A stretch of DNA of 64,000 nucleotides from a bacterium (GTDB taxonomy: Bacteria; UBA10199; 2-02-FULL-50-16; JAJFLM01), in contig CBDCFN010000015.1 in the NCBI GenBank assembly GCA_965216315.1, positions 128,001-192,000 on the forward strand, given 5' to 3'. Of this stretch, positions 36,001 to 42,000 are shown one piece after another. Made by a program: the position numbers. Each line of letters starts with the position of its first letter. The stretch's first letter is position 1.

Positions 36001-39000
36001 CAGGAGCAGTTCGGTCAGTTCCTGACTCAAACCCTCGTCTGCCAGCCCCCCCAGGATTTCGGCAGGCGACCGTCCTTGGTCCAGGGCCGCCTGAAGGCCA
36101 GGCCACAGCCCGCGTAGGACCGTATGCTGCCAATCCCCGGCTTCCAGCTCGTCACGAAGGGCCGCAGCCCCTTCCACATTAGATAAAACCGCTCTTAAGA
36201 GGTCTCGTTCAAAGGGAGTGAGACGCACGCCCTTATGACGCCGAGCGTCAATATCATCGGCCGGTGCCTGTACAAAGTTGCGTCCTCTGTGCCCTAGAGC
36301 CGTTATCTCACGCCGGATCACCGCCTCCGTAAGGCCTAATTTTGACGCAAGTCTCTGAATATACAAGCCTTTTTCGACTTCTTCGACGATGCGCGCTAAC
36401 TGAGGCACGAGCTTACGGGCCGCCTGGACCTTGCCGACGTTGTCTGCGGGGCTCTGGGCCACCACTTTATCGATAAAATAATCCATCAATGCGGGTGCCG
36501 CCAGGAGTCCCGCCCCAAAATTTTCCCGGCCCTCGGTGCGGATAAAGCTATCCGGATCCTCCCCTTCGGGCAGGGAAAAAATGCGCGTCGGAATCCCCAG
36601 TGGGCTCGTCGTCTCCAGGGACCGCCAGGCCGCCTTGAGGCCCGCCTGATCCCCATCAAAGATCACGACGAGTTCTTGGGAGTGGCGACTGAGTCGTTTG
36701 ACCTGGTCCGCGGTCAACGCGGTACCTAAAGGGGCAACGGTATGAGTGAATCCATGCTGCGCCAGGGCCAGGACGTCCATATAGCCCTCAACAATCAAGG
36801 CCTGCTGGGCTTCGCGCAACGATGTCCGCGCCTCGAAGAGACCATAGACCTCACGCCCTTTGTGATACAAAGGCGATTCCGGCGTATTAAGATATTTGGG
36901 TTGTTGGTCGTCGCTGAGACTCCGCCCGCCAAAGGCGATGAACTGACCCGCACTGTTGCGGATGGGAAATATCAAGCGCCCCCGAAAAAAATCAAAATAG
37001 TGACCATCATCCCCGCGACGTAATAGGCCGACCTTTTCAGCCAGTTCCAGGGGAACCTTTTTTGACTCAAGATAGCGTGCGAGTTCACGGCCACTCGATG
37101 GGGCAAAGCCAAGCAAAAAATGCTGCGCCGTACGCGCTTCGATGCCCCGTTGCTTTAAGTAGTCCGCTGCCTGCCGACCCGAACCGCTCTCATCGTGGAG
37201 TTGATTAAAATAGAATTCGGCGGCCAGGTGATTGACGCGCGCATACCGCTTCTTAAGCTGGAGCGATTGGGTCTCATCATTGCGACCGTCAAAGCGAATG
37301 TCCACGCCGACTCGCTCGCCAAGCGCTTGCACCGCCTCCACAAAGGAGATGCCTTCAAACTTCATTAAAAAAGTGAAAACGTTTCCGCCTTCTCCGCAGC
37401 CAAAGCAGTGAAAAATCTGCTTATCGGCATTGACCATAAAAGACGGCGTCTTCTCAGTATGGAAAGGGCAGAGACCCTTATGGTTGCGCCCCGACTGCTT
37501 GAGAGGCAGATACTCCGAGACAAACGCGACGATATCGACGCCTTCGCGGATCTTTTCCAGCTGTTCGTCTGGAATGAGGCCCACCAGTTCCCCCTAGCTT
37601 CTTTAACTATGATCCTAAACGTTGTTGAACTAACTGCTTGACGATCTTCCCGTCAGCCCGCGTCCCCAACTCCGACATCACGGGTTTCATGACCTTACCA
37701 AAATCTTGTGGCCCTGCAGCCCCGCTTTCCTGAATTACTTTGTCAACACACGCGGCGATCTCCGCCTCACTTAGTGGAGGCGGCAACAGGGTCTCTAAAA
37801 ACTCTATCTCTTCCGCTTCTTTGGCGGCCAATTCATCGCGACCCGCCTTTTGAAATTGTTCGATCGATTCCTTGCGCTGCTTGATCAGCGTTGCGACCAC
37901 CTTTTGAGAATCGCCCTCCTCCAGAGGAGCCCCTTTTTCAATCTCTTTATTTTTGAGCGCCGCCTGAGTCATCCGGGCAACATCAAGACGCACCTGCGCC
38001 TTTGCCTTCATCGACTCGACAACAGCCCGCCGGACCTCTTCGAGGATGCTCATTAATTATCTACTCTCTCTTAATCGAACTTTTTTGAGGGCTCGTTTGC
38101 GCGCAGCAATGGCCTTCTTTTTGCGTTTGATTGAGGGCTTTTCATAGTGCTCGCGCTTTCTGATCTCTGAAAGGATGCCTAATTTTTCGCATTGCTTTTT
38201 AAAACGCCTCACCGCTTGTTCAAAACCTTCGCCTTCTCTAATCCTAATACCTGGCATGGATGGCAGACACCCCCTTTACGTGACGTCGTAACTTCACCTG
38301 GAATTTAACTAAAAATTCCTGTCAATTCAATAGTTTATCAAAAGAGAGTGCTTTTAAATGAGCGGGGTCTCCCTGTCAAGATAATTGCTGATGGATGATT
38401 TCATCACACGCGGGAGCTGGAAAAATGCACAACAGTTGGGCAGGCGGTCCGAAGAGGGATTATGTCATTGGGACTGAGCTCAATTGGCTCACTGCACACC
38501 GCCACGCTGATGACATCGGGGCTATGTGCAGCGACCTCGACGTCTTCGTTCAGCGCCGACCAGCTAAGCGCCTTTAATCGGCTGACCATCGCCGAGGATC
38601 ATCGGCCGGACTATCCCGGCGGCCCTCTCGGCACGCGCCACTTTAACGGACAAGTTCTCACACCCATCGCAAGCCCGCGGGCCTCGATAGGAAACGTCTT
38701 GTTGATCAATTCGGGCGGAGACAGCCGCGGCTACAACTGCATCAACTACGGAGCCTATCTCGAACTCACCGCCGGTAAACTCCGTGTCTTTGGCAGCATG
38801 AACGGTTTTGCGGGACTGACGAATCCACGTCCGCAGATCATTGAGCTCAACTCGCATATCACCTCGCAGCTCGCCCACGAAGGGCACCTGCTGCTCGCGA
38901 CCGGGAGTCGTCGCTGCGGCCCTTACGACCAGATTCCAGGCCTCGCCCAAGAGGCGCCGTTGAATAACTTCATGGCGAACATCGCCCCCTTTCTCGGTGG

Positions 39001-42000
39001 CCTGCTCGTCGTCGGTGGCGATGGAACCCTCCAGCTCTGCCAACGACTCGTAAAGGAAGCAGGGATCAAAAACCTGATCTTCGCCGGGGCGAGTATGGAC
39101 GGGGACATCCCGGGCATGGAGTCCTCGATCGGTATGGACTCCTCCCTCGACTACGTCGTCGGCGCCATTCGCTCGATCCAGCGAACATCCGGCAGTTGCA
39201 ACAAAGTCCACATCATTCAGACGATGGGCGGAAACAGCGGCCGTTTTCCCCTGGAAGCCGCCCACTCGGCCGGCATCCGGGCCGTCATCGTCCCCGAATT
39301 GGGTACGATAGACATGCAATACATCTACCGCCTCTTATTTAAGTCTTTACTGGAAAATCGCGGCGCCGTCCTCGTCATCGGGGAGAAGGGGAGTTACCGC
39401 ACCATGCACGGGGAAAAAATTTCCTTCGCCCCCCAAAAGGGTTCGATGAACGGCAAAGAGGTTGAAAAGTTGCGCGCGATCGTCGATCAAGAAATGAACG
39501 AGGTAGCCGCAACACTTTATCCTGATCTCAAAATCTCCACGCGCACGAACATTCTCGGTCATGCCCAACGCCAGCCCGGCAAATTGGCGCAAATCGATCT
39601 TCGTGAGGGCATGGATATGGGGCGCCGCATGGTCCGCGCCCTGCTCGGAGGAGATGAGGGAATGATAATCCCTATGGATGAACGTGATCCGATGATATCA
39701 ATTGACGATGCCCTCTCAGAAAATTCGCGGCAGGCCGGCCGAACCCGCGTCCTCAAGCGCTGGCTGGACAATTTTGGGCCCTTTTATCCGGAGCTCACAG
39801 ACCGATTGCGTGAACGCGAATCCCGCCCGTAGTTTCTAGCAACTTTTCTCCCGCCCCGGCGACACAGTCGGTGGTTGTTGTTAATCATCCCATTCGGGAG
39901 GGGACTCTATGCACATGTCATCGGCACTTTTAAATACGGCACTCGTAAACCAATCGGCTCTGGCAGCCTCATCCACCGTTACCACGGGAATCAACCTGCC
40001 TTATCCTTCGGGAACGCGTTTTCTCCACGAGATACTCGTGGACACCGCTGCAACCGCCCGTTTCGCCAACATCTTTGCAGATGTTCGCCTACCGAGCTCC
40101 CCGCAAGATTTTCAACGGACTTATCGTCACGCGGTTATGCATTTTGAAGGGGCCCGCACCGCCTCACCGGATCGCACCGAGATCGCCACTCATCTGGCCG
40201 GCTTGTCGCAGGAGCGCATGGTATATGTTGATGAGACCGGCAAAGAAATACCGCTACTCGACTACATGTTAGGGGAAGCGGATCCACTGCCGATCGCAAC
40301 CATCGAGTTCTCCGGCGCGGGGTTGATGCCGCGCATTTCTTACGGCAACACGACTCATCAAGGTGAGGAAATCATTTCCCTCGCCAGTGATTTTGCGGAC
40401 CGTCACATGGCCTCACACGCCGCAACGGATGCCTTGCAATGGATTATTGAAAACGGCCGCGATGAAAATGGGCACGTCAATTTAAAGGGTCAGAAGTTTG
40501 CGATCCTCGGCGCAGGAGCCGAATTATCGCCGACCCAAGTTCTCCTTGAGGCCGGTGCCGATGTCTTGTGGATTGACCTCAATCCCCCCTCGGAAGAGTT
40601 TCTTCAGCGACCCGGACTCAGTGGCAGCATTACTTTTGTCCCCGAGCGCCAGGCGGACCTGCTGAATCGACCTCGCGAAATCGCCGAGACGATTGAAAAG
40701 TTCGCTGACGGCCAAGCCGTCAACATCGGAACCTTTGCCTACGCTGCCGGCTCCGGCCTCGAGTGGCGGCTGACCACGGCGATGAATGTCATTGTACGTC
40801 GCCTGCGTCCCGAAACGATCAAATCATACAGTACGTTTATCTCGCCGACCTCGCCGGCCGTGACGCAGCCGGACGACTTAGACGCGGCCCGTGCCGGAGT
40901 GCGCGTCAAGCACATGTTGGTTTCGGCCGCACGCCTCTTCGGGCGTCTTCGACCAAATCACCATCCATATGGCAATATCCATATGGCCGATACAATCGTG
41001 CCCTTGCAAAAAACGGGCTATCAAGGGGCCCAATACATCGAAAAAGTTTGTGCCGCCGAGGCCATCGCCGCCTACGGCAACCGGATGGACCGGCACATCG
41101 GCCACCCGGTCACCGTCTCCGCCAACGTCGCGGGCATCAGCCAGACCAAGAACATGCAGATCCCCGCCTTTCAATTGGGTTTCATCGGGGCGCCGGCTTT
41201 TGGACTTGAGACCTACCAGCCGGAAACCACGCGCTGGCTCAGCGGGTTAATCATGTTATCGGATCTCTTAAACGAGGCGTCGCCGGCAACACCTTCAACG
41301 TCCTATCGCGATGAACAGGATCGGGCTCGGGCCCTCTTTTCACGCCAGGTTCACGGGGGGATCTTTGCCCACCCCTATGCCTTGAATGAATTAATCACTT
41401 TGGCGGGACTCGTCGGAGCAAAGCGCAACCTGCGGCTGGCCGCGCGCGCACTCGCCGAACAATTAAAGGGTGGCAAGAAAAAGAAAGGCTAAGGCAGCGT
41501 CTTGCGTTTGGTTGGAGTGGGGGGATCGCTGTCTTCGTCTTCAGTCTTCATGCGAATCACGTGATCCATGAAAACTGCGGGGTCGACGTAATAGATGCGG
41601 GCTTCATCGTCTTCCGCTTCGCCGACGGGCGTGAGGCTATTCGGATCATAAAGCTGGCCTTCTTCAGCCTTTTCATCGGCCTCGTCTTCAACGCGATTAA
41701 GCACAAACGGTTGACCTTCCTCCATAACCTCGCTCAGAGCTTCACCGACACAGCTCCCCGCATCTTTCACCTCGATAGCATAGATCGCCCAGTAGACGAC
41801 ATTACCCAGCGTTCCGTTAACCTTAATGCTGTAGAGACCTGACTCGACACCCGCCTTAAACCGAAACTTAATCGTTCCATCGGCTTCAACGGGCAACTGA
41901 TAGCCCGGTTTACCTGGATCCGCATCTCCGGGGGTTATCGTCAACCCTAAGTCAGCAATCGACGGAGAACCACTGACACCATCTTTCTCGATAAAGAGAT

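Follow-up and report, generated by a model that had tools for sequence, protein, structure and literature searches.

The window is a stretch of 64,000 nucleotides from the genome of an uncultured, UBA10199-like bacterium. It contains a gene for a divergent phosphofructokinase (PFK)-family protein that directly follows a sigma-28-type promoter, as well as other genes with promoters of this type. In the features below, d is the number of nucleotides between the CGA of the -10 element and the start codon, and SD stands for Shine-Dalgarno.

5491..6719, minus strand: sigma-28-type promoter and gene for a 396-aa protein with a DAGK_cat domain; ATG at 6681, d = 13, predicted 3-nt leader
25332..26605, minus strand: 412-aa orphan gene together with its sigma-28-type promoter; start codon ATG at 26570, d = 10, predicted 0-nt leader
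26656..27607, plus strand: 304-aa orphan gene together with its sigma-28-type promoter, placed back to back with the 412-aa one; start codon ATG at 26693, d = 12, short leader
38057..38257, minus strand: rpsU (bS21), which heads the divergent rpsU-yqeY-dnaG-rpoD operon (TIGR00030, Pfam, ORF map)
38428..38437, plus strand: -35-like upstream box of the PFK promoter; CAAC core at 38430-38433, PWM score 17.0
38448..38455, plus strand: -10 element of the PFK promoter, here TCCGAAGA (gcCGAtaa-type); CGA at 38450-38452, 16 nt after CAAC
38453..38461, plus strand: PFK spacer of 9 nt, purine-rich with a pyrimidine at its end and an SD-like GAGG
38462..39832, plus strand: divergent PFK-family protein, 456 aa, with PF00365 at aa 79-392
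39838..39865, plus strand: sigma-28-type promoter of the gene after PFK, score 20.4; promoter-distal class, d = 46
39896-39903, plus strand: G-rich SD of the gene after PFK, read from the sequence
39909..41492, plus strand: 527-aa orphan without a Pfam family, with an N-terminal tag like that of PFK and an SD-led message

The PFK protein scores below the NCBIfam cut-offs, and a second, shorter homologue is encoded elsewhere in the genome (C16:651748). The N-terminus is a 78-aa extension that precedes the domain and opens with an uncharged tag, which scores from Met1 and not from Met17. The ATG at 38462 lies at d = 9, corresponding to a predicted leader of 0 nt. Since the rpsU operon is divergent from PFK, no same-strand upstream gene reads through into it. 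The GAGG of the spacer lies upstream of the likely +1 and would thus not be transcribed from the sigma-28-type promoter. The genome-wide survey's note chose PFK as its example of a leaderless gene without an SD; the spacing fits, but PFK is among the exceptions that carry an SD-like word. In its orthologues, a promoter-like site is retained right next to the ATG, at d = 13 in G001 and, with a spacer of 17 nt, at d = 11 in G002, where an SD-like word and a strong purine run precede the ATG. The adjoining 527-aa orphan is a leadered counterpart.

The promoter motif, (C/A)(G/A)CAACtttt-N10-gcCGAtaa, was found de novo in the genome. Intergenic matches number 250 at a score of at least 11 and 232 at a score of at least 13, vs 95 genic matches at the latter threshold in 9.4 times more DNA. 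The gap of 16 nt from CAAC to CGA dominates among the sites. The -10 element is of the GCCGATAA type (PWM columns g-c-C-G-A-t-a-a), and this box equals that of Bdellovibrio. The -35 element TAAAG/TTAAG is absent; in its place stands (G/A)CAAC with a T-run after it, a box that is conserved across the class and makes the promoter a variant. The fixed spacer and a presumptive start about 7 nt past the -10 octamer, at a pyrimidine-purine (YR) step 10 nt past CGA, are those of a sigma-28 promoter.

The candidate cognate sigma factor is a 270-aa protein with orthologues in 40/40 relatives. Its best family is FliA_WhiG (TIGR02479), at 133 bits and under the 189.6 cut-off. The gene lies among genes for FHIPEP, YscJ/FliF, FliG, FliH/SctL, an ATPase, YscO, FliK, FliM/N, FliP, and FliR. 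No flagellin match was found in the genome, which is 98% complete.

A downstream gene follows 235 sites at a score of at least 11 and 221 at a score of at least 13. Genes with an in-frame start at d = 8-15 are termed proximal. At the lower threshold, these are 101/235 (91 with ATG), while a coding-only gene caller places the start in this interval in 59/235; the 81/235 reported by the survey's note falls between the two. At the higher threshold, 96/221 genes are proximal and 125/221 are distal, with leaders. ATG is the start of 86 of the 96, where chance predicts 4.2 in-frame ATGs. Counts of in-frame ATGs for d = 8 to 15 are 4, 16, 25, 11, 10, 16, 5, and 1, reproducing the reported peak at 9-14 nt, vs out-of-frame counts of 7, 1, 3, 0, 0, 1, 4, and 4. 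Only six in-frame ATGs occur in total at d = 0-7, and a trough lies at d = 15-17. A pyrimidine directly precedes the ATG in 16/17 cases at d = 9 and in 26/28 at d = 10. The high ATG share noted earlier (77/81) is seen here too. As evidence it is weak: the proximal share (86/96) is close to the distal one (108/125), and the rules behind both of these counts favor ATG.

That this peak is an artefact, produced by the way start codons were chosen or by duplication of upstream regions, is barely credible. ORF starts were called with a simple in-house gene caller, and some GTG/TTG peaks among all motif matches stem from repeats. The peak, however, arises without gene calls, is frame-specific, recurs in relatives, and agrees with mapped Bdellovibrio starts. 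Duplication is ruled out as its cause by the 96 proximal proteins, which form 82 families.

Products of the regulon are mostly orphans or cytoplasmic-looking enzymes with the uncharged N-terminal tag. With a tag model trained on distal genes only, the tag is found in 42/96 proximal proteins, 35/119 distal (SD-led) proteins, and 44/2398 other proteins, at median residue 16 in proximal and 17 in distal proteins. Frame specificity and a tag in the register of the SD-led genes indicate that the proximal ATG is the start really used. Coding-only gene calling put about a third of the proximal starts in the wrong place, cutting off the tag. The tag counts and the place of the sigma gene in an export cluster are circumstantial signs that the tagged proteins may be cargo of a type III-like apparatus. 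An exclusive link between tag and leaderless layout was rejected, as 35/119 distal genes are tagged; the association is loose (P 0.03).

The transcription start can be placed independently of the ATG. Distal promoters have a YR step at d = 10 in 50/115 cases (P 2e-7), and those of eight relatives in 74/141 (P 2e-16). In Bdellovibrio bacteriovorus HD100, about 70/93 mapped FliA starts lie 10 nt and 15/93 lie 9 nt after CGA, by a hand count of the supplementary TSS table (PMC3627812). Both point to a +1 at 9-10 nt after CGA. The 86 ATG genes would then have leaders of 0 nt (43), 1 nt (7), 2 nt (4), 3 nt (25), and 5 nt (2), with negative values for five. By this reckoning, the strictly leaderless share of the regulon is about a fifth (43/221, ~19%), and another fifth (~17%) would have leaders of 1-4 nt, in this genome most often 3 nt. 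The earlier statement that a third of the transcripts are leaderless holds if a leaderless mRNA is one with a 5' UTR below 6 nt (PMC4007540), not for 0-nt leaders; its caveat that leaders of 1-5 nt are possible was apt.

Spacers at d = 9 are more purine-rich (3.2 vs 2.4 of 4). Purine-rich discriminators shift starts upstream, according to the consulted part of PMC5730371, but no such effect on start position was seen in the distal promoters. A class-wide rule of 3-nt leaders is unsupported (12 observed vs ~9 expected among 64 genes of pooled relatives, not significant). By hand counts from pattern listings that were not checked for ORFs, leaders of 3 nt are the most frequent of the short ones in G001 (12/30; 4 nt: 8) and G002 (5/13).

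An SD word is missing in 79/96 proximal genes, in line with the survey, and the 16S tail retains CCUCC, as also reported there. Duplex energies are weaker in proximal than in distal genes (median -3.4 vs -5.6, P 2e-4) and weaker than those of unambiguous starts. Against the earlier contrast of 14/81 proximal vs 85/131 distal genes with an SD-like word, the counts here are 17/96 proximal vs 50/117 distal with coding-only starts or 84/125 with SD-guided starts; the earlier 85/131 resembles the last, partly circular, figure. RNA structure at the 5' end is not weaker in leaderless genes (median MFE -5.05 vs -4.9, P 0.93).

The proximal genes might instead be translated from longer transcripts made by upstream promoters or read-through, with the G-rich spacer as a weak SD and the sigma-28 box a relic or secondary. 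This is very unlikely for the class as a whole. The spacers are indeed G-rich (G 0.45-0.49 at d = 3-5 vs 0.27-0.31 in distal genes), 17/96 hold an SD word, and 30/96 reach a duplex energy of -5 or below, vs 21% of internal-ATG controls. The purine run before the G002 PFK is of the same kind. A same-strand gene lies upstream of 47/96 and, beyond the 17 with an SD word, ends within 120 nt in 34 more. The upstream gene is, however, divergent for 49/96, and 45/96 lack both an SD word and a nearby gene upstream. SD-like words, where present, lie mostly upstream of the likely +1. The sharp register at d = 9-13 with a pyrimidine before the ATG needs a start-site constraint, and the purine-richer d = 9 spacers fit an upstream shift of the start. 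In the 300 nt upstream of each of the 96 proximal genes, no further sigma-28, -70, or -54 model site occurs, a soft result because the sigma-70 model is weak (~27/128 sites expected by chance). Longer SD-led transcripts may serve in addition for some SD-word-bearing proximal genes, including PFK and its G002 orthologue. The proximal genes very probably yield leaderless or near-leaderless mRNAs from sigma-28-type promoters.

The layout recurs in relatives. In eight of them, 64/205 sampled promoters are proximal, with a peak at d = 10 and an SD word in only 3/64 spacers, which also speaks against longer SD-led transcripts; ORFs at these loci were chosen heuristically, and some of the frames in G014 seem to be wrong. 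The survey had named G025, G024, G023, and G055 as sharing the spacing. Genome handles may differ between the two analyses, and the controls are unmatched, as real SD-led starts fall within the window used for sigma-28 (19-23 nt). As counted, recurrence is uneven: G024 has 19 proximal vs 3 control matches, G055 9 vs 4, G023 41 vs 32, and G025 8 vs 8. G027 (0/30 sampled promoters) and G023 (2/26) nearly lack a proximal class, and family f4 seems to be without it.

Promoters of other sigma factors show the layout too. An ATG lies at the start site in 21/94 sigma-70-like and 18/114 sigma-54 promoters, vs 86/221 for sigma-28, whose share is higher than either (P 0.004 and P 1e-5, respectively). 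SD words occur in 1/21 and 0/18 of these proximal genes. Judged by their N-termini, housekeeping genes are among the sigma-70-like ones, such as those for tRNA synthetases, rplM, and citrate synthase. Among relatives, the sigma-70 pattern gives 1398 proximal vs 556 control matches, in a control window (13-18 nt) mostly without real SD-led starts, with an excess in 60/60. Sigma-28 thus enriches the leaderless layout roughly twofold but does not create the class. The survey's interpretation is partly supported: of its statement that an alternative sigma factor makes a large leaderless class in a genome otherwise using SD leaders, the large class under sigma-28-type promoters survives, and the restriction to them falls.

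A dedicated regulatory layer, in which leaderless messages are special to the alternative sigma and all others SD-led, is quite unlikely. The higher sigma-28 share would fit it, as would the lack of co-variation between the sigma-28 and sigma-70 leaderless excess across 60 relatives (rho 0.00), by which the sigma-28 share does more than follow a setting of the whole genome. Among Bdellovibrio transcripts, 0-nt starts also favor FliA, at 21/93 vs 4/47 non-FliA (P 0.06; PMC3627812). Against it stand the SD-poor sigma-70-like genes and their excess in all 60 relatives, a good SD at only half of the unambiguous starts genome-wide, and the leadered 125/221 of the sigma-28 regulon itself.

The probable explanation is a sigma-28-type regulon that draws on a lineage-wide leaderless ability about twice as often as sigma-70 and sigma-54 genes do. 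A divergent FliA/WhiG-like sigma, encoded in a type III-like export cluster of a flagellin-less bacterium, would read ~230-250 CAAC-N16-CGA promoters. RNA would start at a YR step that mostly lies 10 nt past CGA and less often 9 or 11 nt past it; in ~37% of promoters, the start codon would then coincide with +1 or be no more than 4 nt away. A leader of 0-4 nt has no room for an SD, and the most likely way for such messages to be translated is the known leaderless route, in which 70S ribosomes load at the 5' AUG. Leaderless initiation would be a general ability of the lineage. The sigma-28 regulon may use it more because its genes are singly promoted and lineage-specific, mostly tagged orphans and probably export cargo, with promoter, ATG, and tag as a compact expression module.

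A more specialized version, in which the sigma-28 programme is built for leaderless initiation, is rather unlikely. Leaders of 0 or 3 nt would be favored there (2 and 4 nt selected against in this genome, as though the three added bases occupied the ribosomal E site), 70S ribosomes would translate cargo in a non-growing, export-active state with low SD-led translation, and the export signal would lie wholly in the coding sequence.

The closest known system is the attack-phase FliA (sigma-28) regulon of HD100, described by Karunker et al. 2013 (PMC3627812). Both regulons extend beyond flagella and use a CCGATA-type -10 box, with +1, mapped there and predicted here, mostly 10 nt after CGA. The HD100 table gives 5' UTRs of 0 nt for 21/93 and 0-5 nt for 28/93, with none at 6-9 nt, close to the ~19% and ~37% estimated here. 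The upstream box is CAAC here and TTAAG there, sites number ~230-250 vs 92, and the HD100 targets are surface-anchor proteins, unlike the mostly cytoplasmic-looking enzymes and tagged orphans here. The present bacterium also differs in phylum, in its lack of a detected flagellin, and in the sigma gene within an export cluster. The layout is not new as such, being present in the HD100 table, but it was published without remark; the main text of PMC3627812 never uses the word "leaderless". New are the UBA10199-like lineage, which extends it to a second phylum, the mostly orphan, tagged products, and the export-cluster location of the sigma gene. A literature search of titles and abstracts, with most subscription papers and bioRxiv supplements outside it, returned nothing on sigma-28-dependent leaderless mRNAs or UBA10199 gene regulation.

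Start codons 0-5 nt from +1 without an SD, beside SD-led genes, are also reported for Deinococcus deserti (PMC4007540), Mycobacterium tuberculosis (PMC3898074), and Leptospira interrogans (PMC5243855). D. deserti has 916 messages with 0-nt and 258 with 1-5 nt leaders, both translated, and in M. tuberculosis leaderless RNAs increase in starvation. In the consulted parts of these papers, the leaderless class goes with the primary-sigma TANNNT -10 box; here, an alternative sigma accounts for the largest identifiable share, and predicted short leaders almost match 0-nt ones in number. A large alternative-sigma regulon with many messages predicted to be too short-leadered for a ribosome-binding site is visible from sequence alone in an uncultured phylum. 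Should the tagged proteins be type III cargo, about one in five would lack any 5' UTR, which bears on the question of whether a leader can carry an export signal.

Some homologue pairs are leaderless in one relative and SD-led in another, a switch also known from Campylobacter jejuni and Helicobacter pylori (PMC3847290). Those species, unlike the genome here, have only ~20 leaderless genes each, all with sigma-70 boxes, and the consulted part of that paper does not report its 26 sigma-28 starts as leaderless. Natural leaderless and SD-led pairs under one sigma provide material for testing leader length against translation.

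The sigma-28-type motif is represented by CAAC-N16-CGAT, the strongest spaced word in an unbiased search of upstream regions (108 seen, 4 expected). The genome (G000; 2.96 Mb, 98% complete), of which the window is C15:128001-192000, belongs to a UBA10199-like lineage, and a hexamer-based caller gave 2618 genes with 90.6% coding. A weight matrix built from intergenic DNA, with start codons not consulted, converged at 250 intergenic sites, 232 of them scoring at least 13. The -10 part of the motif is the FliA box reported from Bdellovibrio (PMC3627812), and the upstream box is a variant. 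The genome has a single FliA/WhiG-like sigma factor, whose best family is TIGR02479 at a score below that family's cut-off, and a genome-wide search returned no match to flagellin. We infer that this sigma factor reads the motif.

Start codons lie close to many of these promoters. With gene calls unused, ATGs that open ORFs of at least 100 aa cluster 9-13 nt past the CGA of the -10 element (17, 29, 12, 12, and 17, against ~3 elsewhere). The main sample is composed of the 221 intergenic sites that have a gene at most 400 nt away; 11 further sites had none. At a CGA-to-start distance (d) of 8-15 nt, these sites hold 88 in-frame ATGs at 86 sites, where 4.2 are expected by chance, and 20 out-of-frame ATGs; d=0-7 holds 6. 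Including GTG and TTG, 96 sites are proximal (start codon at d=8-15) and 125 are distal, and the 96 proximal proteins form 82 families. A lower score threshold gives n=235, equal to the number in the genome-wide survey's note, with 101 proximal starts, of which 91 are ATG. Loci in the window with this layout include:

Window 38462-39832: phosphofructokinase (PFK)-family gene, 456 aa, oriented divergently to the rpsU-yqeY-dnaG-rpoD operon.
Window 26570-26693: a pair of sigma-28-type promoters arranged back to back within ~120 bp, both directly next to the start codon of their own gene (d=10, d=12).

The likely transcription start is marked by a pyrimidine-purine (YR) step, which peaks exactly 10 nt past CGA in 50/115 distal promoters that lack a start codon within 20 nt (background ~22%) and is found at this distance in 74/141 promoters of eight relatives. 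Mapped starts are available for Bdellovibrio in the supplementary TSS table of PMC3627812. Counted by hand, 70 of its 93 FliA-flagged starts lie 10 nt past CGA, 15 at 9, 3 at 11, and one each at 7, 12, and 13, while two are without a clear box. From the coordinates, 21/93 fall on the annotated start codon, 7 more are 1-5 nt upstream, and none are at 6-9 nt; 21 rows with negative values (start within the annotated gene) are retained in n. Non-FliA starts are on the start codon in 4/47 and at 1-5 nt in 5/47.

Because the Bdellovibrio starts serve as a ruler, d=9-10 is read here as no leader and d=11-14 as a leader of 1-4 nt. Applied to the 86 ATG genes, the YR rule predicts leaders of 0 nt (43), 1 nt (7), 2 nt (4), 3 nt (25), 4 nt (none), and 5 nt (2), with 5 negative. 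The 3-nt class exceeds 2000/2000 simulations (~12 expected) in this genome, but the excess is not significant in the pooled relatives (12 vs 9), and a 0/3-nt register is tentative. In Deinococcus deserti, leaders under 6 nt are counted as leaderless, and PMC4007540 describes both 0-nt and short-leader classes as translated. Under that definition, the survey's estimate that a third of the regulon is leaderless is fair; strictly (0 nt), it is one fifth.

Shine-Dalgarno (SD) words precede 17/96 proximal starts, compared with 50/117 distal starts placed by coding signal only and 84/125 placed with SD guidance, the latter being partly circular. Some observations count against the leaderless reading. 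Proximal spacers in this genome are G-rich, and that of the PFK example holds GAGG. A same-strand gene lies shortly upstream in 5 of the 17 genes that have an SD word and in 34 others, which could also be internal cistrons of longer transcripts. Spacers at d=9 are richer in purines than those at d=10 (P 0.014), which fits the discriminator effect reported for sigma-70 in PMC5730371, where purine-rich discriminators favour upstream starts. Distal promoters show no purine-related shift of start position.

The position of an N-terminal tag points to the proximal ATG as the real start. In many regulon proteins this tag consists of ~20 uncharged Ser/Thr/Ala/Leu-rich residues ending in a (V/L)LA(S/A) motif. 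A tag model trained on distal genes only finds it in 42/96 proximal proteins (median residue 16), 35/119 distal proteins (median residue 17), and 44/2398 others. The regulon total is 77/215, e.g., window 38462 and 39909, and the PFK tag scores from Met1, not Met17. The 15-20 aa uncharged tag is a candidate export signal, and the tagged proteins may plausibly be exported. A Pfam scan of 86 of the 96 proximal proteins (E <= 1e-8) left 65 unassigned to any family; among the matches in the others are kinase, patatin, GNAT, acyltransferase, phosphoesterase, cyclase, and aminotransferase domains. One tagged protein is an unusual fusion:

G000:C16:91474-94470 (-): 998 aa, predicted leaderless, ResIII/DEAD helicase with a sigma-70 region 4 domain.

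The tagged PFK is a second, divergent copy. Its orthologues, 51-52% identical, occur only in two same-family genomes (d=13 in G001; d=11 with a 17-nt spacer in G002), and it is ~25% identical to ordinary PFKs, including that of the same genome at C16:651748.

The layout extends to other promoter classes. A sigma-70-like model has 94 sites with genes, ~a fifth of sites being expected as chance matches; 21 have an in-frame ATG 5-12 nt past the -10 box (chance 2.2), 1 with an SD word. Sigma-54-type sites (TGGCAC-N5-TTGC) number ~130 in intergenic DNA genome-wide, with a YR peak at 13; an ATG lies 10-17 nt past the box in 18/114 (chance 2.5), none with an SD word. Two are in the window:

Window 16640-16660 (-): sigma-54-type site, TGGCAC-N5-TTGC.
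Window 53555-53590 (-): sigma-54-type site, TGGCAC-N5-TTGC.

The sigma-28 proximal share is two- to threefold higher than that of sigma-70-like (P 0.004) and sigma-54 sites (P 1e-5). The survey attributed a leaderless class to an alternative sigma factor in a genome otherwise using SD leaders. The layout is real and, judged from sequence, the proximal genes probably give leaderless messages, but the sigma specificity was overstated.

The two-block motif is present class-wide. Comparisons across relatives are descriptions rather than tests because kin are not independent; sigma-28 proximal matches exceed a 19-23 nt control in 38/60 genomes (1226 vs 788), and sigma-70 proximal matches exceed their own control in 60/60 (1398 vs 556). 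Family f9 has a strong sigma-28 excess (199 vs 80) and family f4 has none (54 vs 66), though f4 sigma-70 matches are still above control (86 vs 43). In eight genomes picked to cover high and low cases (at most 30 promoters each), 64/205 promoters with an ORF are proximal: G031 13/27, G040 13/26, G051 12/27, G024 9/20, G014 9/26, G001 6/23, G023 2/26, and G027 0/30. G027 (L116-L145) has 43 strict sigma-28 motif matches, yet an ATG abuts none of the 30 sampled. In homologue pairs, 5/6 proximal genes remain proximal and 3/15 distal genes are proximal in the relative; the layout is partly conserved and partly switching.

Leaderless transcriptomes are established, as reported in PMC4007540, PMC3898074, PMC5243855, PMC3847290, and PMC3616915. 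A title- and abstract-level search found no statement of a sigma-28 regulon rich in leaderless mRNAs, but the Bdellovibrio table (PMC3627812) itself shows one. The present analysis adds a second phylum and a variant -35 box, connects the regulon with tagged orphan proteins and an export cluster, compares it quantitatively with sigma-70 and sigma-54 promoters, and suggests, tentatively, a 0/3-nt register. The cluster is type III-like (L341, L342) with an embedded sigma-28-like gene, and five large orphan genes come after it, the leading one tagged and predicted leaderless:

G000:C16:339000-361000: FHIPEP, FHA/YscD-like, YscJ/FliF, FliG, FliH/SctL, ATPase, YscO, FliK, FliM, FliN, FliP, FliR.
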